From: an uncultured Thermodesulfobacteriota bacterium
GTDB lineage: Bacteria; Desulfobacterota; B13-G15
Reading direction: 5' to 3'
Assembly (NCBI GenBank): GCA_964611295.1
Contig: CAZSWV010000003.1
Coordinates: 6,449 to 70,448, forward strand
DNA: 64,000 nucleotides
The notes beneath the pieces were generated by a model, which saw only the letters and a list, made by a program, of their open reading frames with translations, searched no databases and was not told the DNA's origin. The position numbers and the translations under genes are program-made. Shown in pieces: positions 11,521 to 63,736 of the stretch (positions are counted from its first letter, which is position 1; each line of letters starts with the position of its first letter).

Positions 11521-11541
11521 AAAAAGAAAAGGAGGTGTAAG

Positions 11542-12582
11542 ATGAAGAGGTTTTTGGCGATTTTGTTTTCCATGTCCTTAACCTGGTTGGCCTTCCCCAT
11601 CAAGGGGGTTATGGCCCTGGAGAAGAAAGGGGAGGTCATCGAGCTTGTCTTCAGCAGTTCGAACCCGCCTGTTGCCCCCATTGTGCAATCTGCCCTTCAC
11701 TGGTTTGAGGTAGTCAAGAAAGAGACCAAGGGTAAGGTCCAATTCAAGGTCGTCACAGGTGGTGCACTGCTTACAGAACAAGAGGTCTTCAGGGGGATAC
11801 AAAGTGGGGTGGCAGACATAGCCACTTACATAGTGGACGAGCGCGATGGCTTTGTCCTCAATAGCGTTATAACCCTTCCCTTCTTGAAGTGGCCTTCGAG
11901 GGAAAAGGCCAATGAGATCTACGAGACGCTGATCCAAAGGATCCCAGAGGTAAAGGCCGAATGGAGGGGGGTGTTGCCCTTTGCCCTCTCCATGATGCCA
12001 CCAAACCATATCCATATGAGGAAAAAACAGGTAAGGACCCCCGCGGACCTCAAGGGGCAAAAGATCGCTGTGACCGGTAAATATGCCTCCCTCCTTAAGG
12101 CCTTAGGGGCAATCCCGGTGGAGGTCCCCATTCAGGATTGGTATTACGCCCTTGAGCGGGGGGTTGTGGACGGTTGCCTCAACCATTTTGCGGTCCTCAA
12201 GGTTTTCCAGCTCCTTGACCTGGTGAACACGCACACCCTCTTCGGTCCCGGCGGAGTGAACATGGGGGCCTTGGGGATAATCATGAACGAAAAGGCCTGG
12301 GAAAGCCTCCCCAAGGACGTACAAGAGGTCTTCGTGCAGACCCAAAGGGAATACACTCGTAAGCTTTACGAGATAGAGGAAACCCAATACCTCCAGGCTG
12401 CCATAGAGCACTGCAAGACACGTGGGCACACTTTCGTTGAGCTTTCGCCTGCTGAGATCACCGCATGGCAGAAGCTGGTGCAGAAGCCCATCGTCGAACA
12501 ATGGATAAAGGACTGTGAGAAAAAGGGGCTGCCTGGCAAGAAGGTCTACGAGGAAATGATCCGTATGATAGAAGGCAAGTAA
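11542..12582 (+). CDS. TRAP transporter solute-binding protein (DctP family), orphan (no adjacent DctQM)
   Basis: 346 aa with signal peptide and a DctP-type fold pattern. RBS AAAAGGAGGTG precedes the ATG. Confidence 0.65.
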   Translation: MKRFLAILFSMSLTWLAFPIKGVMALEKKGEVIELVFSSSNPPVAPIVQSALHWFEVVKKETKGKVQFKVVTGGALLTEQEVFRGIQSGVADIATYIVDERDGFVLNSVITLPFLKWPSREKANEIYETLIQRIPEVKAEWRGVLPFALSMMPPNHIHMRKKQVRTPADLKGQKIAVTGKYASLLKALGAIPVEVPIQDWYYALERGVVDGCLNHFAVLKVFQLLDLVNTHTLFGPGGVNMGALGIIMNEKAWESLPKDVQEVFVQTQREYTRKLYEIEETQYLQAAIEHCKTRGHTFVELSPAEITAWQKLVQKPIVEQWIKDCEKKGLPGKKVYEEMIRMIEGK

Positions 12583-12604: not shown

Positions 12605-13513
12605 ATGGACAGGATCATAGGCCTTTCCTGCGGAAGGATCGGTGGGAACTGTGAGATCCTTCTAAAAGAGGCCCTCATGGGGGCAGAGGAACTCGGAGTG
12701 AAAGGAGAAATCATAAGGGCCATGGAGCTTAGGGTTAAACCATGTAAGGGGTGCGAGACATGCACCCTCCTTATGGCCCAGGGGAAGGAACCCAAGTGTG
12801 CCATAACCGATGATGATGTGCCCTGGATTCTAGAAAAGGTACTTATGACAGATGCGGCCTTTATCTTGGCGGTCCCCGTCTACCACCTTCGGGCCAATGG
12901 TTACTTCGAGTGCATCCACGAAAGGATGTTGCCCTTTGTCTTCGGGCATCCTGAGATATTGGAAAAGAGGAAAGTAGCAGGTCTAATAGCTGTAGGAGGT
13001 GGAGAGCCAGAATGGACACCTCTTGGGGTGACTTCTGCCAACATCTTCATACAGCACTGTTGGAAACTGGTAGACCAAATGCAGGTGAACTTCTGCGGCC
13101 GTCCTGGGTCAGTGCTCTTGCACCCCCATTACCTCGAAAGGGCAAGGGAGCTCGGAAGGAACGTGGCCAGGGCAATGAGGCTTCCCATAGAGGAGGTAAA
13201 GTACATGGGGGAGGAAACTGAAGTCTCATGCCCTGTCTGCCACGGAAACGTCTTCAAGGTCCCTAGTGCGCATCCGGAGATATTCTGTCCCATATGTTGG
13301 ACAAGGGGGCAAGTCTCCTTGGAGGAGGGTAAGCTCTCGGTCCACTGGGATGAGGAAACCGTACAAAACCCGCGGTTTTCCCCTAAGGGGGTAGCGACGC
13401 ACGTCGAACTGATAAAGGACTTACAAAGACAGTATTACAGCAACCTTGAAAGGGTCAAAGCGGAAAAGGCCAAGTACGAAACCTGGGGCAAAGTCCTAAA
13501 ACCGGAGGCTTGA
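12605..13513 (+). CDS. iron-sulfur flavoprotein (Isf)-like NADPH-dependent FMN reductase-fold protein with C-terminal zinc-ribbon/rubredoxin-like Cys pairs
   Basis: Flavodoxin-like fold. Compact Isf-type motif CKGCETC...C near the N-terminus; C-terminal CPVCHG...CPICW. Confidence 0.55.
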   Translation: MDRIIGLSCGRIGGNCEILLKEALMGAEELGVKGEIIRAMELRVKPCKGCETCTLLMAQGKEPKCAITDDDVPWILEKVLMTDAAFILAVPVYHLRANGYFECIHERMLPFVFGHPEILEKRKVAGLIAVGGGEPEWTPLGVTSANIFIQHCWKLVDQMQVNFCGRPGSVLLHPHYLERARELGRNVARAMRLPIEEVKYMGEETEVSCPVCHGNVFKVPSAHPEIFCPICWTRGQVSLEEGKLSVHWDEETVQNPRFSPKGVATHVELIKDLQRQYYSNLERVKAEKAKYETWGKVLKPEA

Positions 13514-15573
13514 GTTTGGAGGACTTGGTAAGGGTTACCGTAGACGACCAGGTCTTTGAGGTACCGAGGGGCAGCTTGCTCATAGAGGTGGCCCTCCAGA
13601 ACGGTATTTACATCCCCCACCTCTGTCACCATCCTGACCTACCGCCCCTTGGGGAATGCGGCCTTTGTCTAATCGAAGTACAAGGCCTGGACAAGCCCGT
13701 GGAGGCCTGTACCTTTGAGGTGCAAGAAGAGGTCAACGTGAAAACCGATTCCCCGCTCTTAAGGGAGTTGCGACGGGAAAACCTGAAGAAGATTTTGCGA
13801 GGGCATCCGCCGGACTGTACTTCTTGTCCCAAGTACATGAGGTGCGAACTTCAGTCGTTAAAACAGTACTTGGGGGTTGGGGATCTTCCCATGGAGGGCG
13901 TCAAAGCCCTTCCTTTGGATGAAACCAACCCCCTCTTTGTCCTCGATCCCTCTAGGTGTGTCCTTTGCAAAAGGTGTATACGGGCCTGTAAGGACCTAAG
14001 GGGAATAGGGATCCTAGAGGTTAAGGAAAAGGACGGCTGGTCTTTTGTCGGGACACGTTCAGGTAAGCCCCTAGGGGAAGAAGGGTGTATGTTTTGCGGC
14101 AGCTGCGTTGAAGTCTGCCCTACAGGTGCCTTTAGGGACAAAGAAGGTTTGTTGAAGGGGAAGGGCAAAAGGGCAGCCCTTTTGCCCTGTGCCACGACCT
14201 GTCCTTTGGAAATAGACATACCCTCTTTTCTCAGGGCCGTAAAAAAGGGCGAAGGCCTCCTGGCTCGTTCCCTCTTGGAAAGGCGAACTCCCATGCCTTT
14301 GACCTTGACTTACGTATGCCAAGCGCCATGCGAGGAAGTATGCCGAAGGGGCCTTGTGAACGCCCCTATGGCTATAAGGGAACTTAAGAGGTTTGTGTTG
14401 GAGGAATTATCCCCTTTTGGTCTCAGAAGGGGTAAGCCTACTTCTGAAGGGACGGGGAAAATAGCCGTAATAGGATCAGGACCCGCAGGTCTGGTAGCAG
14501 CCTATTATTTGAGGCAAATGGGCCATCAGGTGACAGTCTTTGAAGCCATGCCCGAACCTGGGGGGATGTTGAGGTATGGGATACCTAGGTACAGGCTCCC
14601 TGAAGAGGTCCTACAGAAGGAACTACAGGAGCTTTTGGCCTGTGGAGTGGTGCTCAAGACCTCAAGCCCCATTGAGGACCTCGATCCCCTCCTTGGGGAG
14701 TACAATGCGGTAATAGTGGCCATTGGGGCCCAAAAAGGGGTCTCTCCCTTCCAAGACATGGGAAGCCGTTCCGGGATTTACACAGGTGTTGACTTTATGA
14801 AGATGGTCAACCAGGGCCTTGTCCCTGAGATCGGAAAAAGGGTCGCTGTCATAGGGGGAGGTGCGGTTGCCCTGGATTGCGCCAGAAGCGCCATAAGGCT
14901 TGGGGCCTCTGAGGTCTGGGTGATATGTCTCGAACGGAAAGACCAGATGCCAGCTGGCAGGAGGGAAATCGAGGAAGCCGAGGGCGAAGGGGTAAGGTTT
15001 ATCGACTCTGCCCATGTGACGGAACTAAAGGAAGGACCAAGGGGTAAAAGCCTCCGCTATGGAAGGGTCAAAGCCTTTGAGTTGGACCGAAAAGGCGGGC
15101 TGAATGTGGAACTTGAAGAGGGGGTCTTTGGAGAACTTTCTTTAGACACGGTGATATATGCAGTGGGGCAGAGGCCTTCTGTCCCTGAAGGGTTTGGATT
15201 AAAGCTGACCAGAGACGCTACCCTCTGGGTCGACCCTTTCACCTTGATGACCTCGCGCAGAGGGGTCTTTGCCGCAGGGGACGTCCTAACTGGTACCAGG
15301 ACGGTAGCCGAGGCCATGGCCTCCGGAAGAAGGGCAGCAGACGCAGTGGATAGGTTCCTAGGTGGGCAAGGCTTAGAAGATGAGCCCCCAAGGGAGGTAG
15401 AAGTCCGCATTGAGCCCCTGGCCGGTTTCTATAAGCTCGAGCGCTTGAAGGGGAAGGCCCGTTCTGCAAAAGAGGCCGCCTGCGAAGCCATGAGGTGCTT
15501 ACAGTGCGATCTGCGTCTCCGCATAAGGCCACCAAGGTTTTGGGCCGATTTCGCCCAAGGAGGACTCAAATGA
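13510..15573 (+). CDS. multi-cluster Fe-S protein: NuoG/HndD-like N-terminus (2Fe-2S, His-ligated 4Fe-4S, 2x4Fe-4S) fused to a GltD-like FAD/NAD(P)H oxidoreductase domain
   Basis: CHHPDLPPLGECGLC (2Fe-2S); HPPDCTSCPKYMRC; CVLCKRCIRAC and CMFCGSCVEVCP; then the GltD/NfnB-like pair KIAVIGSGPAGL and VAVIGGGAVALD. Confidence 0.75.
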   Translation: MSLEDLVRVTVDDQVFEVPRGSLLIEVALQNGIYIPHLCHHPDLPPLGECGLCLIEVQGLDKPVEACTFEVQEEVNVKTDSPLLRELRRENLKKILRGHPPDCTSCPKYMRCELQSLKQYLGVGDLPMEGVKALPLDETNPLFVLDPSRCVLCKRCIRACKDLRGIGILEVKEKDGWSFVGTRSGKPLGEEGCMFCGSCVEVCPTGAFRDKEGLLKGKGKRAALLPCATTCPLEIDIPSFLRAVKKGEGLLARSLLERRTPMPLTLTYVCQAPCEEVCRRGLVNAPMAIRELKRFVLEELSPFGLRRGKPTSEGTGKIAVIGSGPAGLVAAYYLRQMGHQVTVFEAMPEPGGMLRYGIPRYRLPEEVLQKELQELLACGVVLKTSSPIEDLDPLLGEYNAVIVAIGAQKGVSPFQDMGSRSGIYTGVDFMKMVNQGLVPEIGKRVAVIGGGAVALDCARSAIRLGASEVWVICLERKDQMPAGRREIEEAEGEGVRFIDSAHVTELKEGPRGKSLRYGRVKAFELDRKGGLNVELEEGVFGELSLDTVIYAVGQRPSVPEGFGLKLTRDATLWVDPFTLMTSRRGVFAAGDVLTGTRTVAEAMASGRRAADAVDRFLGGQGLEDEPPREVEVRIEPLAGFYKLERLKGKARSAKEAACEAMRCLQCDLRLRIRPPRFWADFAQGGLK

Positions 15574-16526
15574 AGGTCTGTGTCATATATTTCTCCCAAA
15601 CGGGGAACACCAAGAAGATAGCAGAATCCATAGTGGAAGGCATAAGGGATACAGGGGCCGAATGTGACCTCTTATCCATAAAGGAGGCTTCTGGAACCTC
15701 CCTTGATGGGTACCAATTGGTTGGGATTGGGAGCCCGGTTTGGTGTGGAGCAGAGCCCCCAAACGTAAGGGAGTTCATCCTGAGACTTCCAGGGCAAAGG
15801 GGACGACACGCCTTTTGTTTTTGCACCCACGGGGTCATGCCCGAGCATTACTTCCCCGTGGTCACAAGGAGGCTAAAGGGCAAGGGCTTTACGGTAATAG
15901 GCTTCAAGGGATGGTTCGGCAGCGTCCATTTCCAAATAGCGCCTTCGCCGTATTATACAGAAGGGCACCCAGACGAATTGGACCTAAGGGAAGCGCGGGA
16001 GTTCGGAAGGGAAATGGTCTACAAAAGCCGAAGGATAGCCAATGGCCATTCCGATTTAATACCACCCTTGCCCCCTTACCTATACACACCGCAACTTTGG
16101 GTATTAGCCGAGTTTTACAGGTATGGCCATAACCCCCATGGGCGTATAAGTTATGATCCAGAGAAGTGTAGGTATCCCCAGTGCAGGCTGTGCATGGAGA
16201 ACTGCCCCATGGGTTATATTGACTTCTCTCAACAACCACGGAGGTTTGGCTCAAAGGGTACCGAATGCGATATGTGGCTTGGTTGCACCTTCTGCGAGAT
16301 GATATGTCCAACGGGGGCCATTTACTGTGACTGGGAGGCCTTTCTTGAAGAGAGCAAGGAACTGCTTTCCGTCTTTGACTTCAATCCTCTCGAAGAGGCA
16401 GCAAGAAAGCTGGTCGAGGAAGGCCGTTTAAGGCTTTTGGTGAAATGGGAGGATGTAAGGTGGGATAGGCTTTATTTTATGGTCCACGACAAAAGGCCAC
16501 GGTTCAAAATAGGAGGGACGAGATGA
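15570..16526 (+). CDS. flavodoxin domain fused to a 2x[4Fe-4S] ferredoxin domain
   Basis: Start chosen at ATG 15570 (GGAGGACTCAAATGA, overlapping the upstream stop) rather than the ORF-track 15495. MKVCVIYFSQTGNTKK flavodoxin signature; C-terminal CRLCMENCP and CTFCEMICP. Confidence 0.65.
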   Translation: MKVCVIYFSQTGNTKKIAESIVEGIRDTGAECDLLSIKEASGTSLDGYQLVGIGSPVWCGAEPPNVREFILRLPGQRGRHAFCFCTHGVMPEHYFPVVTRRLKGKGFTVIGFKGWFGSVHFQIAPSPYYTEGHPDELDLREAREFGREMVYKSRRIANGHSDLIPPLPPYLYTPQLWVLAEFYRYGHNPHGRISYDPEKCRYPQCRLCMENCPMGYIDFSQQPRRFGSKGTECDMWLGCTFCEMICPTGAIYCDWEAFLEESKELLSVFDFNPLEEAARKLVEEGRLRLLVKWEDVRWDRLYFMVHDKRPRFKIGGTR

Positions 16527-17974
16527 GACACCTTGAGACAGAGATCGCAGTTATAGGGGCAGGACCTGCGGGTCTGGCAGCAGCCATATCGGCTGCTGAG
16601 CGAGGCAGCCAAGTAGTGGTACTTGAAAAAGGGGCCACTACAGGCGGAACGGCAAACATGGGAATGGGCCTTTTCGCTGTAGAAAGTAGGATACAAAAGG
16701 AAAAGCAGATAGCCTTGACTAAGGAAGAAGCCTTTCGGCTTTTCATGGATTACACCCATTGGCGAACCGATGCGAAGCTCGTGAAGTCTTATATCGACAA
16801 GTCCCCTGAGACCATATCCTGGCTTGAGGCAATGGGGGTGGAGTTTTACGATGTAGCGGCCTATTTCCCTGGGGCCCACTTCACTTGGCACATAGTGAAG
16901 CCTGAAGGCGGAGGGAGACCCGGCCCCGGTTGTGCTGCCACCATGACTAAGCTCATGACCAAACGGGCACAAGCCTTGGGGGTCACGTTCTTCTTGCAGT
17001 GCCCAGCTAAAAAGCTCTTAGGATCTGAAGAGGGGATAGAGGGGGTCCTTGCTGAAGATAGGGCTGGCGAGGAACTTTATGTCAAAGCGAAAGCCGTAGT
17101 CATCGCCACAGGAGGATTCGGCGACAACCCCGAATGGATAAAGCGCTTCACCGGTTTCCAGTGGGGGGTCGACCTCTTCTCCTTTAGGATACCAGGGCTT
17201 AACGGAGATGGGATAAGGATGGCATGGGATGTTGGCGCCGCGCGTTCGGAAATGAACTTGGAGCTGATATACGGCACTCCTGGGCTAGATGAGTTCCCTA
17301 CCCTAAGAGAGGTCTTCCGCCAACCCTTTGTCCTCATGCTGAACCTTCTCGGGGAACGTTTCATAAACGAGGAGATACTCCCCAACACCACCTTTACAGG
17401 CAATGCCGTAGCAAGGCAAAAGGAACGCTGTGCCTTCGCCGTACTGGATGACCACATATTGGAACGTTTGAAGAAAGGCCTTGAGGTCTTTTCCATGGTC
17501 TTTCCCGTGAAAGATGCCGCCTCTTTTGAGGATGAGTTTAAATCCGCCGTATCCAAGGGCGTAAAAGACCTCTTCATGGCCAATAACCTCCAGGAACTAG
17601 CAAGCCTCACCGGAATGGATGTAAAAGGGCTCCTTAGGACCTTTGAGGCTTACAATGCCTTTTGCGAGAGGGGAGTGGACAAAGAGCTTGGTAAAAGCCC
17701 TAAATACCTCTTCCCCCTTAAGGGACCGAGGTTCTTTGCAGCGAAGGTCTATCCGAGTGCATACGGCACATTAGGGGGGATAAAGATCAACCACCGGTGT
17801 GAGGTCCTCAACGAACAGTGGGGATCCATCCCTGGGCTTTACGCTGCTGGCACCGATGCCTGTTCCATCTATGGGGATAGCTACATGTTCTTATTGCCCG
17901 GCAACACCATGGGCTTTGCCGTCAACAGCGGACGAATTGCTGGCGAAAATGCCTCTTTTTACGTAAAGGGTTAA
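16523..17974 (+). CDS. FAD-dependent oxidoreductase, fumarate reductase/succinate dehydrogenase flavoprotein-like (FAD_binding_2)
   Basis: AVIGAGPAGLAAAISAAERGSQVVVLEKG...GGT N-terminal FAD fold and VIATGGFG motif. A soluble flavocytochrome-less fumarate-reductase / 3-ketosteroid-dehydrogenase-like architecture. Confidence 0.7.
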   Translation: MRHLETEIAVIGAGPAGLAAAISAAERGSQVVVLEKGATTGGTANMGMGLFAVESRIQKEKQIALTKEEAFRLFMDYTHWRTDAKLVKSYIDKSPETISWLEAMGVEFYDVAAYFPGAHFTWHIVKPEGGGRPGPGCAATMTKLMTKRAQALGVTFFLQCPAKKLLGSEEGIEGVLAEDRAGEELYVKAKAVVIATGGFGDNPEWIKRFTGFQWGVDLFSFRIPGLNGDGIRMAWDVGAARSEMNLELIYGTPGLDEFPTLREVFRQPFVLMLNLLGERFINEEILPNTTFTGNAVARQKERCAFAVLDDHILERLKKGLEVFSMVFPVKDAASFEDEFKSAVSKGVKDLFMANNLQELASLTGMDVKGLLRTFEAYNAFCERGVDKELGKSPKYLFPLKGPRFFAAKVYPSAYGTLGGIKINHRCEVLNEQWGSIPGLYAAGTDACSIYGDSYMFLLPGNTMGFAVNSGRIAGENASFYVKG

Positions 17975-17980: not shown

Positions 17981-18469
17981 CTATCCTACCCAGGGGATCT
18001 CCAAGACTTGAAGGCACCGGGAAGGGCAGACTGCAACGCATATGGGCTCTTTCCCATCGCGGACCCTATGGAGGCATAGGTCACACATGGCCACTGTCCC
18101 GTCTGGCAAGAACTCGGGGGCCCCTATGGGACAAGCCTCTTTACATAGACCGCACCCTGTACAGATATCCCTGTCCACTTCAAGGACGCCTTCTTGGGTT
18201 TGGAATATGGCCCCAAGCGGACATGCCTCCTTACAAAGAGGGTGCGTACATTGCCTACACACCACAACTCTAAAGGACTGCCCCACCTTTCCATCTACAA
18301 TAAAGGGGCCTCCTTCAAATACCCTTATGAAGGACGGTCCCTTGGGTTCGGCCTGGGGAGGGGAAGTGGGATAAGGGGGGAATTGGTGTTCCATCTTGCA
18401 GGCAACTGTACACGCGCGACATCCTATACATTTCCTTGGATCTACCTGGAGCTTAAGCCTCATCCTCAA
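17981..18469 (-). CDS. 4x[4Fe-4S] ferredoxin-type electron-transfer subunit of a molybdopterin oxidoreductase (DmsB/PsrB/BthL-like)
   Basis: Four Cys clusters: CIGCRACTVAC, CRQCTHPLCKEACP, CTGCGLCKEACP, CDLCLHR...CVAVCP. Overlaps and follows the Mo-subunit gene. Confidence 0.75.
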   Translation of the reverse strand: MRMRLKLQVDPRKCIGCRACTVACKMEHQFPPYPTSPPQAEPKGPSFIRVFEGGPFIVDGKVGQSFRVVVCRQCTHPLCKEACPLGAIFQTQEGVLEVDRDICTGCGLCKEACPIGAPEFLPDGTVAMCDLCLHRVRDGKEPICVAVCPSRCLQVLEIPWVG

Positions 18470-20579
18470 CCTCTGCCTTGGAGATGCGACATAACAAAGC
18501 CCTGAAGGTAGTAGACCCTATACATGGGTCATAAGGGGGGTCATTGCTAGTAAGTACATTGGCGTTGCTTATGAAAAGGCTCTGGACAGATGGGTCCTCT
18601 GGATAGTACCAGGAACTCTGAACCACAACGATCCTCGGATCCATTCCTGAGAAGAGCTTGGCCTTTTGCTTTATCCTACCCCTTGGGGTCTCAATCCACA
18701 CCCAATCGCCCTCTTTTATGCCGTACTTGGAAGCTGTTTCGGGGTGGATCTGAACGACGGGATAAGGTTGGAGCTCCCTAAGCCATGGGTTTTCCCTGTA
18801 CTGCGAATGGAAGTAATACGGGACACGCCCACCTGTAGTTAAGATCAAGGGGTAGACTCCGCTCAGGGAGCCATCAAGGGGGCTTTCGTTGGGTTCCTTA
18901 TAATGGGGCAATGGATCATAGCCTAACTTTTCCAAAGTCGTAGAATAAAGCTCCACCTTCCCTGTTGGCGTGGGGAATCCTCCTCCTTTGCGCCAATATC
19001 CCCTTTCGTGCTTGTTGTAATGTACCTCCCCTGTTGTGGCCAATACGCCTACTTCTTTGAACTCCTCCCATCTGATTCCGGCTTTCCTCAGTTGGTAATC
19101 AAGCATTTCCTCTACGTCCTCAAAGGGCCAATAGATGGGGGCAAGCCGCTTACCCAATTCGAGGAATATCCTGTTGTCTGGCCAGGCCTCACCCGGAGGT
19201 TCTACAGCCTTGACTATTGCTGAAACGAAGAACCTAGGATGCATGTCGTATATGTCGTCGGTCTCAAGCCAGTGGGCAGCCGGTAAGACCAAGTCTGCAA
19301 AACGCGCCGAAGGCCCCATGTAAAGGTCCACAACCGAGATGAACTCCACCTCTGAAAGGGCCTGGAATACCTCCTTGGCGTTTGCGTAAGCCAGTACTGG
19401 ATTGGTCCCCACAAGGTGCATCACTTTTACCTTCTTTTCGCCATAGAGGAGGTCTTTACAGACTGAGTCCCAATGACACATGGCAAAGGGGGGCATCGCC
19501 AGGAGTTTATGTTCGTTGGCCCCTATGGGCAGCTCCTCCGGCGCAGGCACCTCCAGGGCGAAGTCTTCCATAGGACCTGCCGGTGAAGGCACCCACTGGA
19601 CCATACTGCCGGGCCTCTCGATGTTGCCCGTTATGGCCAAGATGCAAATTATGGCCCTTAGGGTCTGGATGGAATTATTGCTCGCCTCAAGGGCTTGACC
19701 TATTTGGATGCAGGCGGGACCCTCACATGCTATAGCCCTCGCCATGGCCTTGATCTTCTCTTCCGGCACCCAGGTGATGTGGCTGACCCACTTTAGGTCA
19801 TATTGCCTGACCCTTTCCGCCAAGGCCTCAAAACCATAAGTCCATTTTTCCACAAACTCCCTGTCGTAGAGCTTTTCTTCTATTATGACCCTCAGGACCC
19901 CCAGGGCCAAGGCTGCATCTGTACCTGGCCTTATGGGGACCCAAAGGGTCGCTCTATGAGCCAAAGCAGTAGCCCTTGGGTCGACAAGGATGAAGTTTTG
20001 GGCCTTCTCCAAGGCCCTCAGGAACCAAACGCCCATTTCGCCATCGGCATTGCTGTATTCTAGTTGTTTTCCCCAATGGACGATGGTCTTTGGATGAACC
20101 CCACCCCATCCATGGTAGTCACAGAAAAGCCTCCCTCCCACTGTTAGGCCAAAGGCGGCCATCCTCGGTGCAAAACAGAAATGGGCAGGGAAAAGTACAT
20201 TGGGCGTACCGATGGACCGGGCAAAACGTAAGGTATAACGGTTATACCCCCTGCCTGTACCCTGGCCCACAAGGACAGAACTGGGACCGTAACGCCTTTG
20301 AGCTTCCCTTATCTTGTCCGCAATAAGGTCAAGGGCTTCTTGCCAAGGGATTTCAACCCACTTGCCACTTCCCCTTTCACCGACCCTTTTTAAGGGTTTG
20401 GTCAACCTATTGGGGTTTACGGTCTCAAGGATGCTAGCGATGCCTTTGGGACACATGGTCCCAAAGGTTAGAGAGTCCTTCTCCCCCTCTATATGAGAGG
20501 CCTTCCCGTTTACCACGGTCACAAGGACCCTACACCCTCCGTGACAGCCTTTACACGTGGTCCTGACCTTCTTGACCAT
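18453..20579 (-). CDS. cytoplasmic molybdopterin (Mo/W-bis-PGD) oxidoreductase catalytic subunit, acetylene-hydratase / transhydroxylase-like clade; no Tat signal
   Basis: 708 aa. N-terminal CKGCHGGC...C FS0 motif directly after Met, with no RRxFLK leader. The protein recalls acetylene-hydratase-type DMSOR-family members. Confidence 0.75.
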   Translation of the reverse strand: MVKKVRTTCKGCHGGCRVLVTVVNGKASHIEGEKDSLTFGTMCPKGIASILETVNPNRLTKPLKRVGERGSGKWVEIPWQEALDLIADKIREAQRRYGPSSVLVGQGTGRGYNRYTLRFARSIGTPNVLFPAHFCFAPRMAAFGLTVGGRLFCDYHGWGGVHPKTIVHWGKQLEYSNADGEMGVWFLRALEKAQNFILVDPRATALAHRATLWVPIRPGTDAALALGVLRVIIEEKLYDREFVEKWTYGFEALAERVRQYDLKWVSHITWVPEEKIKAMARAIACEGPACIQIGQALEASNNSIQTLRAIICILAITGNIERPGSMVQWVPSPAGPMEDFALEVPAPEELPIGANEHKLLAMPPFAMCHWDSVCKDLLYGEKKVKVMHLVGTNPVLAYANAKEVFQALSEVEFISVVDLYMGPSARFADLVLPAAHWLETDDIYDMHPRFFVSAIVKAVEPPGEAWPDNRIFLELGKRLAPIYWPFEDVEEMLDYQLRKAGIRWEEFKEVGVLATTGEVHYNKHERGYWRKGGGFPTPTGKVELYSTTLEKLGYDPLPHYKEPNESPLDGSLSGVYPLILTTGGRVPYYFHSQYRENPWLRELQPYPVVQIHPETASKYGIKEGDWVWIETPRGRIKQKAKLFSGMDPRIVVVQSSWYYPEDPSVQSLFISNANVLTSNDPPYDPCIGSTTFRALLCRISKAEVEDEA

Positions 20580-20776
20580 TTCCCCTTTAACGGAAAAGTT
20601 AACAACCTTTATGCCATTGATACTATGAAAAGGCCACCTTGGAAAGGACCTTTCACAGTTCGTAGCATTTTGCGAAAGGGGCTTGGAAATTTACGAGAAC
20701 TCTGAAGGACCTTAAAGGCCCTAGGTCATCCTCCCGATGCCGAATTAAAGGCATAGCGCTTGCTAAGGGAAATCCC

Positions 20777-21745
20777 GTGGTGGATCCCTCAAAGCTGAAA
20801 ATAGGGGTTGTAGGGGCTGGGCAGATGGGCCATGGGATAGCACAGGTCTTTGCCTGTGCTGGCTCAGGGGTGGTGATGGTGGACGTGGACATGGAGAGGT
20901 TGAAGAAGGCCCTTCGGCTTATAGAGGAAAACCTCGCCTTTTTGGCCGAAAAAGGGCTCTTCAGGGGAAGGCGCGAAGAGGTCCTCAGGAGGATTGAACC
21001 CTCCACGGCCCTTGATCCCCTGAAGGAGGCTGACTTAGTGGTTGAATCCGTCTATGAGGACCTCAAGTTAAAACAGGATCTCTTCTTCGAACTTGACCGT
21101 TTGTGTAGGCCTCAGACCGCCTTGGCCTCCAACACTTCGGTCATTAGCATCACTGAGATAGCTCAAAGGTGCCGAAGGAAGGAGAGGGTCCTTGGGACCC
21201 ACTTTTGGAATCCTCCCTTCCTTGTACCCCTTGTGGAGGTTGTAAAGACAGAGCACACTTCGGAGGAGGTCTTCGACTTCGCTTACGAGGTGCTTTTGGC
21301 CGTAGGCAAAAGGCCCATAAAGTGCTTAAGGGATGTACCTGGATTCATAGCCAATAGGCTCCAGCATGCCCTTTGGCGCGAGGCAGTCTCTTTGGTGGAA
21401 AAGGGTATAGCCGATCCCGAGACGGTGGACGAGGCCATAAAGTTGAGCTTTGGCTTGAGGCTCCCCGTCCTGGGTCCTTTGGAGAACGCTGATATGGTTG
21501 GGCTGGACCTGGTATTGTCCATACACGATTACATCTTCAAGTATCTCGATGCTTCAAAGGAAGCCTCACCCCTTTTAAGGGAGAAGGTGGAAAAAGGCGA
21601 GCTAGGCTTTAAGTCCCAGAAGGGCTTCTACACATGGACCGAGCAAAAGGCAAAGCAGAAGAGGGAAGAACTCTTAGAACACTTGGTGAGATGGCATCTT
21701 TCGCAAAAAGGCCAAGGAGGTGAAGATGGAAAAGCTCATAATTAG
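20777..21745 (+). CDS. hbd: 3-hydroxyacyl-CoA dehydrogenase (3-hydroxybutyryl-CoA dehydrogenase-like)
   Basis: KIGVVGAGQMGHGIAQVFA NAD fold. NTS motif (ASNTSVISITEIA) and HFWNPP region typical of the 3HCDH family. Confidence 0.8.
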   Translation: MVDPSKLKIGVVGAGQMGHGIAQVFACAGSGVVMVDVDMERLKKALRLIEENLAFLAEKGLFRGRREEVLRRIEPSTALDPLKEADLVVESVYEDLKLKQDLFFELDRLCRPQTALASNTSVISITEIAQRCRRKERVLGTHFWNPPFLVPLVEVVKTEHTSEEVFDFAYEVLLAVGKRPIKCLRDVPGFIANRLQHALWREAVSLVEKGIADPETVDEAIKLSFGLRLPVLGPLENADMVGLDLVLSIHDYIFKYLDASKEASPLLREKVEKGELGFKSQKGFYTWTEQKAKQKREELLEHLVRWHLSQKGQGGEDGKAHN

Positions 21746-22661
21746 CGCCGCTTTAACAGGGAACATCACCCTACCGACTCAGACCCCTTATTTACCAATA
21801 ACCCCAGAAGAGATAGCCGAAGAAGCCAGAAGAGCGGCAGAGGCAGGGGCGGCCATAGTCCACATACATGCACGGGATCCCAAAACGGGAAGGCCTACTA
21901 CAGACCCTGAAGTCTACAGGGAAATTGCGGTAAAGATCAAGGAAAGGACCGACGCCATAATATGCATAACCACTGGTGGTACCATGTACATGACCCCGGA
22001 GGAGAGGTTAAGGGTTGTCCCACTCCTGAAGCCTGAGCTCGCTACCTTTAACATGGGTTCCATCAACTTCTCCATCCATCCCATAGCCGATAGGTTCAAA
22101 GACGAGGAATGGAAGTACCCCTGGGAGAAGGAGTTTGCCGAAAGTACAAAGGACTTCATCTTCAGGAACACCTTCGGCGACATGGAAAAGTACTGTAAGA
22201 CCATGTACGAAAACGGCACTGTACCTGAGTGTGAGGTCTACGATGTAGGACACCTCTACAACATGAACTTCCTAATAAGGAAGGGGTTGTTGAGGAAACC
22301 CATATGGATGCAGTTCGTGACTGGCGTCCTGGGGGGTATAGGTGCTGATCCTGAAAACGTCATCTTTTTAAAACAAAGGGCTGACAAGCTCATCGGCCCT
22401 GATAACTATCGCTGGTCTGTCATAGGGGTTGGGTACCCTGCAGAATTCCACCTCGCTGCCCTTGCTATAGTGATGGGGGGACATGTGAGGGTAGGTTTTG
22501 AGGACAACATCTACATAAGCAGCGGGGTACTGGCTAAGAGCAACGCCGAATTGGTGGAGAAGGTGGTAAGGCTTGCAAGGGAGTTGGGTAGGGATATCGC
22601 CTCGCCTGAGGAAGTGCGTAAGACCTTGGGCTTGAAAGGTAAGGACAAGGTGAACTTTTAG
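21720..22661 (+). CDS. BKACE family enzyme (3-keto-5-aminohexanoate cleavage enzyme-like, DUF849)
   Basis: 313 aa TIM-barrel. IISAALTGN, IVHIHARD and ICITTGG match beta-keto acid cleavage enzymes. Confidence 0.75.
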   Translation: MKMEKLIISAALTGNITLPTQTPYLPITPEEIAEEARRAAEAGAAIVHIHARDPKTGRPTTDPEVYREIAVKIKERTDAIICITTGGTMYMTPEERLRVVPLLKPELATFNMGSINFSIHPIADRFKDEEWKYPWEKEFAESTKDFIFRNTFGDMEKYCKTMYENGTVPECEVYDVGHLYNMNFLIRKGLLRKPIWMQFVTGVLGGIGADPENVIFLKQRADKLIGPDNYRWSVIGVGYPAEFHLAALAIVMGGHVRVGFEDNIYISSGVLAKSNAELVEKVVRLARELGRDIASPEEVRKTLGLKGKDKVNF

Positions 22662-22679: not shown

Positions 22680-23444
22680 ATGGGCGGGCTTTTTGACTTG
22701 ACAGGGGAAGTGGCCATAGTGGTCGGAGGTTCTGGTGGCCTCGGGCAGGCTCAAGCGCTAGGACTTGCGGAAGCCGGGGCCCATGTGGTGGTAGCCGCTC
22801 GAAGGATGGAAAAACTCGAACCCGTAGTCGAGCAGATCAAGGCCATGGGCCGTAAGGGATTGGCCGTGAGCGTAGACGTGGTGGACGAAAGGTCTGTAGA
22901 GGCCATGGTGGAAAAGGTCCTTAAGGAATTCGGGAAAATCGACATCTTGGTGAATTCCCACGGGATTGCCATACGTAAACCTGCGGAGTCTTTCCCTATC
23001 GATGAATGGCGTCAGGTCATAGAGGTAAACGTAGTGGGGCTTTTCATATGTTGCCAAAAGGTGGGGCGTGTCATGATAGACCAGAGGAAGGGAAAGATAA
23101 TCAATATGTCCTCGGTAAGGGGGAGGTACGGGCTTCCTGCCAACTATACCGCTTATTGTGCAAGTAAGGGAGCAGTGGACACCCTGACAAGGACCCTGGC
23201 TTGCGAGTGGGCAAAGTACAACGTCCTTGTCAACGCCATAGCGCCCACCATCGTGGAAACAGAGCTGACACGCCCTGCACTTTCGGATCCAAACTTCGCC
23301 CAAACTATGAAGGCGCGCATACCCCTTGGAAGATGGGCTATGCCGGATGACATAGTCGGCCTGACGGTCTTTTTGGCCTCAAGGGCCTCGGATTTCATCA
23401 CCGGACAGGTCATCTATGTAGACGGTGGGGTCACTACCTGGTGA
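22680..23444 (+). CDS. SDR family oxidoreductase
   Basis: VVGGSGGLGQA, NSHG (NNAG-like) and YCASKGAV (YxxxK). Confidence 0.8.
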   Translation: MGGLFDLTGEVAIVVGGSGGLGQAQALGLAEAGAHVVVAARRMEKLEPVVEQIKAMGRKGLAVSVDVVDERSVEAMVEKVLKEFGKIDILVNSHGIAIRKPAESFPIDEWRQVIEVNVVGLFICCQKVGRVMIDQRKGKIINMSSVRGRYGLPANYTAYCASKGAVDTLTRTLACEWAKYNVLVNAIAPTIVETELTRPALSDPNFAQTMKARIPLGRWAMPDDIVGLTVFLASRASDFITGQVIYVDGGVTTW

Positions 23445-23466
23445 AAAAAACTTAGGAGGTGAGCAG

Positions 23467-24273
23467 ATGGGCAGGGAAGTCCTTGTAGACTTAAGCCACC
23501 CCTTTGGGGCTGGATGTCCCCTTTGGCCCTATTTTGAAGACGTGAAGATAGAGAGGATGCACTATTTCGCTAAATCAGGGGTCCTCTCCCAGAAGATAAC
23601 CACAGTCATGCACTGTACCACCCATATGGACGCCCCAGCACATGTATTTGAGGGTGGGAGGTATATCCACGAAATACCCCTCGATTCTTGCTACGGGGAC
23701 GCAGTGGTTTGGGACATACCAAAGGGAAAATGGGAGCTCATAACAGCCAAGGACTTGGAGGAAGCCAACCGTAAATTGCCCATCAAGCCAGGCGATATCG
23801 TGATCATACATACGGGATGGCACCATTATTGGGGCGACACGACCATGTATTTCTGTTACTCCCCTGGACTCGGCCGGGAGGCAGGAGAATGGTTCGTGGA
23901 TCATAAGGTGAAGGCCGTCGGGATAGACAACCAAGCCCTTGACCACCCCTTACACACCGCCATAGGTCCCCATGGGCCTGGCCCTTTACGTCCCGACATA
24001 TGTGAGGAATACAAACGGCTGACAGGAAGGGACGTCTTGGAGGATTTCCCTGAATGGGAACCTTGCCATAACATCATCCTGCGTGCAGGAATCGTAGGTT
24101 GGGAAAACGTAGGAGGCGACATAGACAAGGTGGTCGGTAAGAGATGTAAGATCATAGGTTTCCCCATAAGGTGGTACAGGGGAGATGGCTCCATTGTCAG
24201 GCTTGTAGCCATCATAGACGAGGAAGAACTCAACGACGCACCTGATTTCACCTATAAGTACGGGACCCTCTAA
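23467..24273 (+). CDS. cyclase family protein (kynurenine formamidase-like metal hydrolase)
   Basis: Start moved to ATG 23467 behind the AGGAGG RBS. Motifs HCTTHMDAPAH and IHTGWHHYW are typical of the cyclase/ArfB-like family. Confidence 0.6.
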   Translation: MGREVLVDLSHPFGAGCPLWPYFEDVKIERMHYFAKSGVLSQKITTVMHCTTHMDAPAHVFEGGRYIHEIPLDSCYGDAVVWDIPKGKWELITAKDLEEANRKLPIKPGDIVIIHTGWHHYWGDTTMYFCYSPGLGREAGEWFVDHKVKAVGIDNQALDHPLHTAIGPHGPGPLRPDICEEYKRLTGRDVLEDFPEWEPCHNIILRAGIVGWENVGGDIDKVVGKRCKIIGFPIRWYRGDGSIVRLVAIIDEEELNDAPDFTYKYGTL

Positions 24274-24277
24274 GCCC

Positions 24278-26131
24278 TCATGGGGATAAAGAGGTCCTCC
24301 TGAAGGAACGTTCGGGTGGCCTCTTTATCCCCAATTTCTTCATCCTGGCCCGTAGGGTAGATTCCTTCAGCCCTAAGATCTCGGCAGCTCCTCCCTTGCC
24401 GCTTACGCGCCAATTGGTGCTCTCCAAAACCTTCAAGATATGTGCCCTTTCCACCTCCTCTAGGCTTTGAGAAAGGGGCTCTGGAGGCAAAGGCGGCTTT
24501 TGCGGTTCAAGGTCCTCGATCACAAGGTAAGGGCCATCGGAGATGATCATAGCCCTTTCGATGACGTTTCGGAGTTCCCTTACGTTCCCAGGCCAGTGAT
24601 ACTCCATGAGCTTCTTTAGGGTCTGCTCAGGAACGCGAACGTCCCTTTTGCCCATACCTTGGCCTATCCTTTTGACGAAGTACTCCACAAGCAGGGGGAT
24701 ATCCTCCCTTCTGTCCCTCAAAGGGGGTATGTAGATGGGAAAGACGCTCAGGCGGTAATAGAGGTCTTGACGGAACCGCTTCTCCCTTACCAATTGCAAA
24801 AGGTCTTGGTTTGTAGCAGCTATGACCCTGACGTCTACTGTAACCGTTTTTGAACTCCCTACCCTTTCAAATTGCTTGTACTCCAATACCCGTAAGAGCT
24901 TCGCTTGAAGCTCCAAGGGGAGTTCGGATACCTCGTCCAAAAAGAGGGTAGAACCGTCAGCGGCCTCGAATCGACCGACCCTCGACCTCACAGCCCCTGT
25001 ATATGCCCCTTTTTCCACGCCGAAAAGCTCTGCCTCTATTAGGGTCGGAGGCAAGGCCGCACAGTTCACCGTGACCATAGGTCTGTCCCTTCTCGGGCTC
25101 ATGTTGTGTATGAGACGTGCAAGGAGCTCTTTCCCTGTACCAGTTTCGCCAATTATCAGGACACAGGTGTCTTCTTTGGCCACTTTCTCAGCCAGTTGTA
25201 AAACCCGCCTTATCGCCTCGCTTTGGCCGATGAACTCAAGCCTTCCAAAACGCGCTTCGATCTCCTGCCTCAGGTATATGTTTTCGTTCTCCAAACGTTC
25301 CTTTAAGGCCTTTATCTCTGCATAGGCCTGACGCAATTTCTCCTCAGCCTCTTTCCTAGCCGTTATGTCCCTAGTTATGGACAACAAGAGGCTCTGCCCC
25401 TCAAAATCAACCCTTCCCAGGGTCACCTCTACAGGGAAGGTGGAACCATCCTTCCTCCTATGGACCCCTTCAAAGGTGATGTATTCGCCTGGCCTCAACT
25501 TATGCCAAAAGCGGTCTTTATGCCTTTTGGACCTTACCTCTATGTCGATATCGCTTATGTTCATGCGCAGGAGTTCTTCCCTACTGTAACCTAAGGTCTC
25601 ACAAGCCCTGCGGTTTACCTCAAGGATTTGTCCTTCGTAGTCATGCACAAAGAAGGCATCCCCTGCTTGTTCTATCAACATCCGAAGCTGTAACTCGTTT
25701 TTTTGAAGCTTCAAGTTCGCATCTTTTTTGTCGGTTATGTCGGCTATGAACCCCTCTATAAAGGGGTTTTCATCTGAAACCCTTCGGGCATGTAAACAGA
25801 TCCAAAGGGGATCGCCACTGACCCTTTTGGAGCGCAACTCTTTGGAAAGGACCTCCCCGCGATCCTTGAGTTCCTCAAGAAGCGAAAGGAATCCCCCTTC
25901 AGATAACAATTGGGACATATGGGTTACTTCTGAGAGCATGGCTTGGCGGTCTTTGTAGCCGAAGATACGGGCCATCGTGTTGTTCACGTACCTTATAGAA
26001 CCGTCTTCAGTGGAAAGGAAAATTCCTATAGGAGCTTCGTTTATCAGGTCATCCCAAAGGGAGAGAAAGCGAGCGCTGAGGACCTTTTGCATTACAACAC
26101 TATTATATGTTTGCCCTTTCCCCAAGGGCAA
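24278..26131 (-). CDS. sigma-54-dependent transcriptional regulator with two N-terminal PAS domains and C-terminal Fis-type HTH
   Basis: [18 protein letters not shown] Walker A, GAFTGA-like GAYTGA loop, [16 protein letters not shown], and PAS blocks. No receiver domain. Confidence 0.85.
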
Positions 26132-26191: not shown

Positions 26192-28219
26192 ATGGCTGGA
26201 GAAAAGCGTCTCAAAAAGACCCGAAACATAGGGTTCATGGCGCATATTGACGCTGGTAAGACCACTGTTACCGAGCGGGTCCTCTACTATACAGGCAAAA
26301 TCCACCGCATGGGGGAAGTGGACGAAGGGACAGCTACTATGGATTGGATGCCCCAGGAGCAGGAGAGGGGCATTACCATTACTTCAGCTGTAACAACCTG
26401 TTATTGGCGCGACCACATAATACAAATCATCGACACCCCTGGTCATGTGGACTTCACCATCGAAGTGGAACGCGCCTTGAGGGTCTTGGACGGGGCCATC
26501 GTTATATTTTCCGCTGTGGAAGGGGTCGAACCCCAATCTGAGACCGTATGGCACCAAGCATCGCGTTACCGTGTACCTAGGATTGCCTTTGTAAACAAGA
26601 TGGACCGTGTAGGGGCCGATTTCTTTGAGACCGTGAACCAGATGAGGGAAAAGTTGGGGGCTAATCCTTTGATCGTACAGATCCCTTGGGGGACAGAGGC
26701 CGAATTTGTGGGCGTCATCGACCTCATAAAGATGAAAGGGATCTTTTGGGAGGACGAATTAGGGGAAAGACCTGTGGAAACCGAAATACCCCAAGAACTC
26801 ATGCCCTTAGCTGAACGCTTCAGAGAAAAGATGCTCGAACAGGTGGCCGAGACCGATGAACTGTTGCTGGAAAAATACCTTGACGGACAGCCTATAACCG
26901 AAAGGGAGTTAAAGGAAGCCATAAGGAAGGCCACCATTGCCCTCAAATTACAGCCTACTTTATGTGGGTCGGCCCTTAAGAACAAGGGCATCCAGCCCCT
27001 GCTTGACGCCATAGTGGACTATTTGCCTTCACCTTTGGACATACCACCTATCAAAGGCTTAAACCCAAGGACCCAAAAAGAGGAGGAAAGGCCAAGCGAT
27101 GAGGCAGCGCCCTTGTGTGCCCTGGCCTTCAAGGTGATGATGGACCAAGGGAGAAAGCTTACCTATCTGCGGGTTTATTCCGGTGTAATGCACGAAGGCC
27201 AGGAAGTCTACAACGCCACTTTGGGCAAAAAGGAACGCATTGCCCGTATCTTTGAAATGCATGCCAATTACAAAAAGAGACTTGAGGTGGCCAGGGCTGG
27301 GGAAATCGTAGCCGTAGCTGGTCTAAAGGACACCCTTACAGGGCACACGCTCTGTGACGAATCCCATCCCATCTTACTTGAACCCATACAGGGCTATGAA
27401 CCCGTCATTTCAGTGGCTGTCGAACCGAAAACAAGCCAAGACCAGGATAAGTTGTCCATGGCCTTGGAGAAGATCATGGAGGAAGACCCTACCTTCAAGG
27501 TCAAGTATGACGAGGAAACCGGTCAGACCGTAATATCTGGGATGGGCGAACTACACCTGGACGTCATAATCAGGAGACTCAAGGACGAGTATGGCCTTGA
27601 GGTCAACGTGGGCAAACCTCAAGTGGTCTACCGCGAGACCATATCCCAAGGGGCAGAAGTCAAGGTCCAATTCTCCCGTCTTATAGAAGGGGCCCAAAGG
27701 TTTGCAGAGGTCACATTAGAGCTGATCCCAAACGAAAGGGGCAAGGGAGTGGAATTCATCCCCTTACTACCCGAAGGATTACCTGAGGAACACCTAAAGT
27801 CCATAGAGGAAGGGGTAAGGGAGGCCACTACCATAGGGGTCCTCGGCTATCCCTTGACGGACGTGAAAGTCCTTCTGAAGGAAGTCTCTTACAGCAAGGA
27901 CGAATGGGCACCGTTGGTGCTTAAGGCGGCGCTTTCCCAAGCCATCCAAGAGGCCTCCGAGAAGGCCAAACCCATCCTTCTTGAACCCATAATGGAACTT
28001 AACGTCGTAGTCCCCCTTGAGTTCATGGGAGAGGTCATAGGGGACCTTCAAGCACGTAAGGGGCAAATAGAGGGCATAACCACTAAAGGGAAGATAGCCA
28101 TAATCCGCGCGCTTGTCCCCCTCACGCGCCTTTTCGGGTATTCGACGGATTTAAGGTCCCTCACCCAGGGAAGAGGTAGCTTTTCGGCGAGGTTTTTGCG
28201 TTATGACAAGTTCCAATAA
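26192..28219 (+). CDS. fusA: elongation factor G paralog (EF-G2-type), located outside an str operon context
   Basis: [25 protein letters not shown]...DTPGHVDF...NKMD and full five-domain length. The ORF-track start at 25943 is an upstream in-frame extension. Confidence 0.85.
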
Positions 28220-60477: not shown

Positions 60478-60563
60478 TAGTTTTTAAGGGCATGTTGCCA
60501 AGTTCTTGCTGAGTATTCTATAAAAAAGGCAACTTTTAAATACAGAACTAAGGGGGTTAAGCC

Positions 60564-61871: not shown

Positions 61872-61874
61872 CGT

Positions 61875-63182: not shown

Positions 63183-63201
63183 AATACCCCTAATCCTTTG
63201 T

Positions 63202-63702: not shown

Positions 63703-63736
63703 TACAGAAAAACCTCTTTCTACTGCTCTGGACCTC

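Follow-up and report, generated by a model that had tools for sequence, protein, structure and literature searches.

Results

A candidate feeder enzyme beside a phloroglucinol operon

We analysed a 64,000-nucleotide stretch of DNA from an uncultured Thermodesulfobacteriota bacterium (assembly GCA_964611295.1, contig CAZSWV010000003.1, forward-strand positions 6,449 to 70,448; hereafter "the window"), within which two overlapping genes encode the catalytic subunit (α) and the ferredoxin partner (β) of a soluble, cytoplasmic Mo/W-bis-pyranopterin enzyme (Table 1). The pair stands divergent from an operon predicted to degrade phloroglucinol, and on balance we lean towards the view that α-β is a redox-linked, aryl C-O-processing feeder of that pathway. 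A feeder role is probable because α-β adjoins, and probably shares its regulation with, phloroglucinol genes in both bacteria and archaea.

The four products of the divergent operon belong to the reductase, cyclohydrolase, dehydrogenase and lyase families that carry out anaerobic phloroglucinol degradation (PMC10470551), and the operon is, as judged from these family assignments, the putative four-enzyme pathway. Its BKACE-family protein scored 413 bits against the NCBIfam model '3,5-dioxohexanoate:acetyl-CoA acetone transferase', for which the cut-off is 430. Clusters of this kind have been noted in sulfate reducers and Archaeoglobus, with no mention of a molybdoenzyme (PMC10470551).

Pathway genes adjoin α homologues in 11 independent loci (the window and the loci L086, L001, L005, L088, L087, L089, L006, L091, L016 and L017), spanning Desulfobacterota, Archaeoglobus, Bathyarchaeia and others. 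The entire island is repeated in L086, a bacterial relative at 78% identity. In A. fulgidus DSM 8774, α-β lies inside the cluster, the order being BKACE, F420_oxidored, cupin, SDR, 3HCDH, SSF transporter, α, β, an unknown gene, cyclase, CoA transferase and thiolase. L016, L017 and L091 each present one co-directional operon of the four pathway genes, a cupin, α, β (missing from L017) and a transporter; the pathway genes and α likewise share a single co-directional operon in L087, and they are adjacent in L088 (archaeal type), L089, L006 (Bathyarchaeia) and L005. A neighbour-joining tree rooted on acetylene hydratase (AH), with L088, L089 and L091 outside it, placed the window (together with a near-identical copy, L085), L086, L087, L001, L005 and L006 in one clade, termed clade A. 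A cyclohydrolase homologue lies no more than 8 kb from α in all six clade-A loci, and L016 and L017 fall in its sister clade.

An exchange of the module between domains is suggested because α is 74% identical to Archaeoglobus proteins, while the elongation factor EF-G (26195-28219) assigns the window to an uncultured Desulfobacterota ('Deltaproteobacteria') lineage, its best named matches, from Deltaproteobacteria/Desulfobacterota metagenome-assembled genomes, reaching no more than 77% identity.

Two small proteins accompany these clusters. Most clusters that bear the Mo enzyme have, directly upstream of the SDR gene, a gene for a cupin of some 113 aa (L001:6135-6479, L005:551-895, L087:5096-5479, L088:3475-3813, L091:4273-4617, L016, L017 and L019); the cupins of Archaea and Bacteria share 58-89% identity, and the window and L086 have none. 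Only archaeal phloroglucinol clusters with the Mo enzyme (L001:12586-13149, L005:7016-7606, L087:4462-5043 and L088:10061-10624) encode a protein of some 190 aa, which in L088 is assigned to Pfam AF_0136_C.

Shared promoter-like elements

The divergent intergenic region (20580-20776, 197 bp) contains two σ54-type -24/-12 elements, TGGCATAAAGGTTGTT before α and AGGCATAGCGCTTGCT before the phloroglucinol operon, which both face outward and together form a 23-nt inverted repeat. Their equivalents in L086 are GGGCATGGCCCTTGCT, before the α orthologue, and AGGCACAATCTTTGC, before the dehydrogenase gene. A gene for a PAS-PAS-AAA+-HTH σ54-dependent activator follows the operon in the window, and it is found at the same position in L085 and L086. 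These arrangements suggest that α-β and the phloroglucinol operon probably share σ54-dependent expression via the adjacent PAS-domain activator. A scan for σ70 promoters and terminators returned nothing above chance.

We also observed a 9-mer, AAGGACCTT, present in 10 copies in the window against 1.4 expected. Copies at 20644 and 20705 fall in the intergenic region, one of them inside the near-palindrome GAAAGGACCTTTC; they may bind the activator or simply reflect base composition.

The catalytic subunit and its ferredoxin partner

The α open reading frame (ORF) begins with MVKKVRTTCKGCHGGC at ATG 20579, directly preceded by AAAGGGGA. As this ATG is the first start codon downstream of an in-frame stop, α cannot begin further upstream. 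Neither a twin-arginine (Tat) motif in α nor an alternative upstream start with a cryptic Tat signal was found, in agreement with the original prediction, drawn from the letters of the window alone, of a 708-aa cytoplasmic subunit with no twin-arginine leader. Also as predicted, the CX2CX3C...C cluster motif is kept (C9-x2-C12-x3-C16...C43, the ligands of the proximal cluster, FS0). Pfam recognised Molybdop_Fe4S4, Molybdopterin and Molydop_binding domains. The alignment at the ligand position places Cys135, the putative metal ligand, at Cys141 of AH; it is followed by a phenylalanine (F136).

No NCBIfam model reached its cut-off with α or β, the best for α being PhsA (307 bits; cut-off 694) and the formate dehydrogenase alpha model TIGR01591 (291 bits; cut-off 666), so that no orthology to formate dehydrogenase alpha is indicated. 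The top PDB sequence match of α was AH (2e7z, E 2.8e-93), followed by T. thermophilus PsrA (3e-69). A Foldseek search with the AlphaFold model of α (pLDDT 77.8) also returned 2e7z first (E 3.5e-46, TM 0.81), all other matches being at 1e-35 or weaker. The resemblance to the AH branch of the dimethyl sulfoxide reductase (DMSOR) family, which the original prediction had named, is thus real both in sequence and in predicted fold. AthL, the large subunit of pyrogallol transhydroxylase, was not among the 60 matches listed of the 61 PDB sequence matches of α (E <= 1e-5), and the transhydroxylase structure 4v4c_A ranked 17th by Foldseek (TM 0.65, 18% identity). Orthology to AthL/BthL was rejected: α has a Cys ligand and FS0, whereas AthL has a Ser ligand and no FS0. 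A Pfam scan of 60 window ORFs (most of those of at least 140 aa; E <= 1e-5) gave no match to a TorD/DmsD-type chaperone.

The β protein carries 16 cysteines in four motifs (CX2CX2CX3C, CX2CX4CX3CP, CX2CX2CX3CP and CX2CX11CX3CP), confirming the four-cluster ferredoxin that had been predicted. Its best matches are DmsB/PsrB-type proteins, the closest being T. thermophilus PsrB. Kinship with pyrogallol transhydroxylase, to which the original prediction had likened the pair, does not extend beyond the family fold. β is translationally coupled to α, and a β partner occurs in most family loci. The coupling had been described as a 17-nt overlap; an 11-nt overlap is more likely, with β starting at ATG 18463 rather than TTG 18469, because ATG 18463 is preceded at proper spacing by AGAGG, six bases upstream, and because a 99%-identical contig carries a 160-aa gene called from the same ATG.

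An acetylene hydratase scaffold with a different active site

In a HMMER alignment with AH, C9, C12, C16 and C43 of α match the cluster cysteines Cys9, Cys12, Cys16 and Cys46, and Lys45 corresponds to Lys48. The position of AH Asp13 is occupied by His13 in α. The hydrophobic pocket of AH, reportedly set out by Seiffert in 2007, consists of Ile14, Ile113, Ile142, Trp179, Trp293 and Trp472. The first five of these align to G14, G109, F136, D179 and I293 in α, and W472 falls in an insertion found only in AH that adjoins H447 of α. Thirteen positions were invariant across 88 family sequences: C9, C12, H13, G14, C16, C43, K45, C135, D154, H156, D179, E181 and H447. Asp13, which follows the second cluster cysteine, is specific to the AH subfamily and essential, the D13A mutant being inactive, and Trp179 and Trp472 lie near the active site (PMC12096430). 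α is therefore AH-like in scaffold but no acetylene hydratase, since Asp13 and the pocket residues have been replaced. Of the earlier label, "acetylene-hydratase/transhydroxylase-like", the placement on the AH side of the DMSOR family stands, but the features that define AH, namely Asp13 and the hydrophobic ring, are lost.

A compact environmental family

A word-index search recovered more than 4,500 homologues at E <= 1e-20 among 8,000 scored candidates, reaching beyond the family as defined at >50% identity. The best 120 are all about 710 aa long, 57-99% identical and without names. In a 50%-identity representative library the family is a single representative (55%, 822 bits), and the next ones stand at 42-44% (at most 564 bits); members of the nearest clusters outside the family bear generic names only. 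Residue 13 varies in the more distant representatives: of 152, 56 have His and 5 have Asp at this position. Some of these proteins bear Tat leaders. By sequence, the α family appears as a compact and highly conserved group (>50% identity) within a superclade of AH and catechol dehydroxylases.

Maini Rekdal et al. (2020; PMC7028382) described a clade of bis-MGD catechol dehydroxylases with AH as its nearest characterised relative, including a soluble Gordonibacter subtype (Dodh/Cldh type) in which the Tat leader is missing, the catalytic subunit is smaller and a small 4Fe-4S protein is encoded alongside. The two-subunit architecture of α-β, which the original prediction took to be an unusual combination, hence has a published precedent. 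Comparator homologues were taken from the supplementary alignment of that study (eLife 2020), and a relative from A. fulgidus DSM 8774 (P0004, 74% identical to α) is identical in sequence to taxon 93 of its Fig. 7 dataset, a tree of dehydroxylase homologues retrieved by Cldh/Dadh criteria. α is closer to putative reductive dehydroxylases (37-40%) than to AH (31%, 303 bits). The identities are 40% (510 bits) for the enzyme of the Thauera aromatica AR-1 3,5-dihydroxybenzoate cluster, 39% (485 bits) for a Kuenenia homologue, 39% (454 bits) for the yatakemycin-cluster enzyme, 37% (461 bits) for a D. tiedjei homologue and 37% (424 bits) for the CC-1065-cluster enzyme. The motifs CxxCH-GGC, C[FY]xPR, CDY and DG are common to α and most of these homologues. 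Genetic work has shown the CC-1065 enzyme to be essential, and it "likely catalyzes reductive dehydroxylation"; in the Thauera mutant, growth on 3,5-dihydroxybenzoate is poor (PMC7028382).

About 80% of the sampled family loci belong to Chloroflexi and Dehalococcoidales clades. The Dehalococcoidales clade comprises 56 loci (L024-L084), often several per genome, in which genes for an FeS protein (230 aa), an NrfD-type anchor (295 aa) and the catalytic subunit follow one another (L033:8303-12127, L056:8230-12178). These catalytic subunits are Tat-less and have a His after the ligand Cys; the complex would apparently be membrane-anchored and face the cytoplasm. Dehalococcoidia genomes, from peat, aquifers and sediments, often hold several paralogues. 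In Dehalococcoidales, true AthL homologues also occur within a few kb of family members (L083:3563-6214, E 1.7e-141 to 4v4c_A; also L073, L074 and L075), in loci where genes for carboxylesterase, Zn-ADH, TPP-enzyme and URO-D-like proteins are common.

Redox partners and other neighbouring genes

In six loci, α-β is directly adjoined by the gene for a Pyr_redox_2 flavoprotein (about 410 aa) that resembles ferredoxin or rubredoxin reductases. The versions in L009, L010, L018 and L091 are 67-77% identical to one another, and those in L090 and L023 are more distant; in L091 the phloroglucinol operon itself contains the flavoprotein gene, placed between the pathway genes and α. Such a layout of three components speaks for electron flow linked to NAD(P)H and against a pure hydratase. 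The window has no Pyr_redox_2 homologue of this partner type. It does have a convergent four-gene module, conserved in L086, for an FMN_red-like protein (302 aa), a 2Fe-2S/4Fe-4S/GltD-like NAD(P)H flavoprotein (687 aa), an EFR1 flavodoxin-ferredoxin and a VprA-like FAD ene-reductase. The FMN_red-like protein (12605-13513) has no NCBIfam match, and homologues 62-72% identical to it, identities about as high as those of the Mo enzyme itself, are encoded near family members in L009, L011 and L018.

Operons with α homologues also carry LIV-type ABC, TRAP or SSF transporters. An Amidohydro_2 gene directly follows α in L017; some members of the Amidohydro_2 family are aromatic-acid decarboxylases. 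UbiD genes occur in L087, about 6 kb downstream, and at a greater distance in L037, and no UbiD-type gallate decarboxylase was found among the scanned window ORFs.

Table 1. Genes and promoter-like elements at and around the α-β locus of the window.
Feature	Position	Strand	Remarks
CocE/NonD-family hydrolase and TRAP DctP-type solute-binding protein	9718..12582	+	Conserved at island edge
Convergent four-gene redox/phenolic module	12605..17974	+	Candidate electron supply
β subunit, DmsB/PsrB-type four-[4Fe-4S] ferredoxin	17981..18463	minus	160 aa from ATG 18463; 162 aa if TTG 18469
Catalytic α subunit	18453..20579	minus	708 aa; Tat-less Mo/W-bisPGD; FS0 [4Fe-4S] C9/C12/C16/C43; K45; His13
σ54-type -24/-12 element TGGCATAAAGGTTGTT	20601..20616	minus	22 nt upstream of α ATG
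σ54-type -24/-12 element AGGCATAGCGCTTGCT	20749..20764	+	13 nt upstream of phloroglucinol operon
3-Hydroxyacyl-CoA-dehydrogenase (3HCDH) family; putative counterpart of (S)-3-hydroxy-5-oxohexanoate dehydrogenase	20777..21745	+	Pfam; PMC10470551
BKACE family; putative counterpart of triacetate acetoacetate-lyase	21720..22661	+	Pfam E 8e-110
SDR family; putative counterpart of phloroglucinol reductase	22680..23444	+	Pfam; PMC10470551
'Cyclase' family; putative counterpart of dihydrophloroglucinol cyclohydrolase	23425..24273	+	Pfam; PMC10470551
PAS-PAS-AAA+-HTH σ54-dependent activator	24278..26131	minus	Presumed regulator of both divergent operons

Several further genes of the window were recorded. 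A second Mo enzyme, from the xanthine-dehydrogenase (XDH)/aldehyde-oxidase family (30259-32903, minus strand; MoCoBD large and 2Fe-2S small subunit), is encoded 10 kb away. An OYE-type enoate reductase (1353-3431; Oxidored_FMN and Pyr_redox_2, 692 aa) stands beside a Rex-like repressor (4301-4948), and this reductase family and SnoaL_4 proteins flank family members in loci of Anaerolineales and Deltaproteobacteria and in L086. A ThiF/MoeB-like gene and a MOSC-domain gene (47692-48878) are possibly tied to Mo-cofactor sulfur chemistry. Elsewhere the window encodes a prismane/hybrid-cluster protein (49263-50903), a 1403-aa BcrAD/BadFG ATPase with DUF2229 ('CoA enzyme activase'; 55496-59707) and a 496-aa ORF (37028-38518) with no Pfam match at E <= 1e-5. 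The G+C content drops from about 0.52 to 0.41-0.45 over 60000-64000, which encodes a URO-D-like protein (435 aa) and TRAP DctM/DctQ; the URO-D family is found near Dehalococcoidales members as well. The DctP gene at 11542 has no adjacent Q/M genes.

Discussion

Proposed role of α-β

Phloroglucinol is the intermediate on which the anaerobic breakdown of tannins and flavonoids converges, and the pathway has a gap: the source of phloroglucinol from more oxygenated phenols in sulfate reducers, Archaeoglobus, Bathyarchaeia and Chloroflexi. Pyrogallol transhydroxylase is, to our knowledge, the only known feeder molybdoenzyme. Formation of phloroglucinol in one step takes either removal of the C2 substituent from a 1,2,3,5-tetraoxygenated ring (a hydroxyl in tetrahydroxybenzene, an aryloxy group in phlorethols) or a net isomerisation of pyrogallol. 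We propose that α-β would take a benzenoid richer in oxygen substituents than phloroglucinol, process one of its aromatic C-O bonds and release phloroglucinol; the most plausible substrates would be pyrogallol, 1,2,3,5-tetrahydroxybenzene, a gallate-derived compound or a phlorethol-type aryl ether. The substrate would bind at the metal (Mo or W) held by Cys135, in a site presumably lined with the invariant acid/base residues His13, Asp154, His156, Asp179, Glu181 and His447. FS0 and the four β clusters would carry electrons to or from the metal, and the ultimate source of these electrons may be an NAD(P)H- or ferredoxin-linked flavoprotein. The neighbouring reductase, cyclohydrolase, dehydrogenase and lyase would then degrade phloroglucinol to acetoacetate and acetoacetyl-CoA. 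The original guess of an uncharacterised hydratase, transhydroxylase or reductase is still compatible with these features, although reductase or transhydroxylase-like chemistry is now favoured over that of a hydratase.

A number of points weigh against a feeder role. We know of no common natural phenol that gives phloroglucinol by single-step reductive dehydroxylation; 1,2,3,5-tetrahydroxybenzene is rare, and pyrogallol requires a net isomerisation. The Chloroflexi/Dehalococcoidales clade (53-58% identical) has no adjacent phloroglucinol genes, and as the linkage is confined to a subclade, substrates probably differ among clades. The candidate electron-donor genes of the window are convergent, not co-transcribed with α-β. 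Window-wide, matches to the σ54 pattern are not enriched (23 against 26.8 expected), and only the position, orientation and conservation of the two intergenic sites are informative. The AlphaFold2 model has low confidence in the active-site loops, the >50%-identity family is known from its sequences, and the likeness to the Gordonibacter enzymes is drawn from their published description. The Eggerthella A2 Tat-type sequences carry the cluster motif CRGCGKMEC, not CxxCHG. Finally, the phloroglucinol pathway runs without such an enzyme in Clostridium scatologenes (PMC10470551).

Alternative explanations

One special case of the feeder role, a distinct though minority possibility in our estimation, is that α-β is a redox-neutral pyrogallol-phloroglucinol isomerase, not orthologous to AthL/BthL, that replaces it. 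Pyrogallol would be oxidised, oxygen being added at C5 and removed at C2, with the five Fe-S clusters doing no more than buffer electrons internally or poise the redox state. Such an enzyme would explain why a cytoplasmic α-β Mo enzyme is found in the 11 pathway loci, exactly where the classical pathway puts transhydroxylase, and why none of those loci has an AthL homologue; the nearby Amidohydro_2, UbiD and carboxylate transporter genes fit a route from gallate to pyrogallol. However, α shares no homology with transhydroxylase beyond the family fold, as the ligand, FS0 and the fold ranking attest. The genes for NAD(P)H-flavoprotein partners in six loci argue for net electron input, and the presence of a true AthL beside family members in Dehalococcoidales implies that the two enzymes are not simply interchangeable.

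A more doubtful alternative is that α-β is a general reductive dehydroxylase of catechol-type polyphenols that merely resides in a shared "polyphenol island". It would serve as an electron sink or in ring tailoring, for example of flavonoid B-ring catechols or hydroxycinnamates, and would yield no phloroglucinol. The grouping with putative dehydroxylases fits this role, as do the neighbouring genes for the VprA-like ene-reductase, the OYE enoate reductase, the CocE/NonD hydrolase and the XDH-family Mo enzyme. The surroundings in another clade, clade B (CoA ligase, ACAD, OYE-ER and SnoaL_4, with no phloroglucinol genes), are also consistent with it. Yet the single operons of L016, L087 and L091 hold only phloroglucinol genes and a transporter, making a loose island unlikely, and both the shared σ54-type elements and the cyclohydrolase in every clade-A locus argue for a tighter association.

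It is highly improbable that α-β is a cytoplasm-facing Psr/Phs-type reductase or a formate dehydrogenase, even though PhsA and Fdh-alpha are the top NCBIfam models, β is closest to T. thermophilus PsrB and the Dehalococcoidales relatives bear an NrfD anchor. Both identities were rejected: the scores fall far under the cut-offs, the locus has neither a Tat leader nor an NrfD gene, the surroundings are those of aromatic catabolism with no sulfur or formate genes nearby, and Cys135-Phe stands in place of the Sec/Cys-His pair of formate dehydrogenase. Least credible of all is an acetylene hydratase or another AH-type hydratase without redox chemistry: no solved structure is closer than that of AH, and the Cys ligand, FS0 and Lys45 are kept, but we rejected this identity on the invariant His13 and the exchange of the hydrophobic pocket for invariant polar Asp, Glu and His residues, and a monomeric hydratase would need neither a four-cluster partner nor the reductase partner of other loci, while true D13-type relatives fall into separate clusters.

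Significance

Returning to the feeder role, we put forward, tentatively and as something short of an even prospect, that sulfate reducers and archaea enter the phloroglucinol pathway by an unrecognised route, which this family would provide either as an AH-derived isomerase or as an NAD(P)H-linked aryl C-O reductase. In the latter form it might remove a substituent between two hydroxyls (e.g., from 1,2,3,5-tetrahydroxybenzene) or, as another option, split diaryl ethers of the phlorethol type, found in brown-algal phlorotannins, to give phloroglucinol units. If this is true, the module moved between Archaea and Bacteria along with the pathway, and the Dehalococcoidia expansion (NrfD-anchored and Tat-less) would represent polyphenol C-O reductases that are important in anoxic carbon turnover. 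How phenols are turned over anaerobically in peat, aquifers and sediments matters for the "enzyme latch" view of carbon storage, and the re-tooling of an AH-like scaffold, with Asp13 and a hydrophobic pocket giving way to His, Asp and Glu residues, is of mechanistic interest. Our search of the literature since 2018 found no description of this enzyme; in the literature searched, nothing appears to have been reported either on its coupling to phloroglucinol catabolism or on a large environmental family in which the AH active site is re-tooled to His13. Because a conserved and probably co-regulated Mo/W enzyme is present in the clusters, the question is testable in the culturable A. fulgidus DSM 8774.

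Comparison with known systems

AH from P. acetylenicus (2e7z) resembles α in identity and fold as given above, in its similar size and Tat-less, cytoplasmic nature, and in having FS0, a Cys metal ligand and a Lys between FS0 and the pterin. It is, however, monomeric with no electron-transfer partner, whereas the window enzyme has a four-cluster β and sits in phenol-catabolism surroundings.

The catechol dehydroxylases of Gordonibacter, like α-β, are Tat-less, with a smaller catalytic subunit, a small 4Fe-4S partner and no membrane anchor; they too have a nearby transporter gene and AH as nearest characterised relative. They act on catechol side-chain compounds in gut Actinobacteria, whereas the window family is environmental (Desulfobacterota, Archaea and Chloroflexi) and tied to the phloroglucinol pathway. 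The Thauera and Streptomyces cluster enzymes share 37-40% identity with α over the full length, the lack of a Tat leader and common motifs, and genetic evidence links them to polyhydroxy-aromatic metabolism or reductive dehydroxylation (PMC7028382). They belong to different 50%-identity clusters and different pathways, and the window family has its own representative.

PsrABC of Thermus thermophilus (2vpw) provides the second-best PDB match for α and the best for β, and its ligand-Cys motif, CTAPR, is close to CFAPR in α. In contrast to the window locus, which has no anchor, Tat leader or sulfur surroundings, it is exported by Tat, has an NrfD-type anchor and reduces polysulfide.

AthL/BthL of Pelobacter acidigallici (4v4c) differs in size, its α subunit having 875 aa and its β subunit 274 aa against 708 and 160 aa here, and the transhydroxylase β subunit carries three clusters. 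It belongs to the same superfamily as the enzyme of the window and is likewise a cytoplasmic α-β Mo enzyme; the phloroglucinol it forms enters the same downstream pathway, which is the physiological slot that we propose for α-β.

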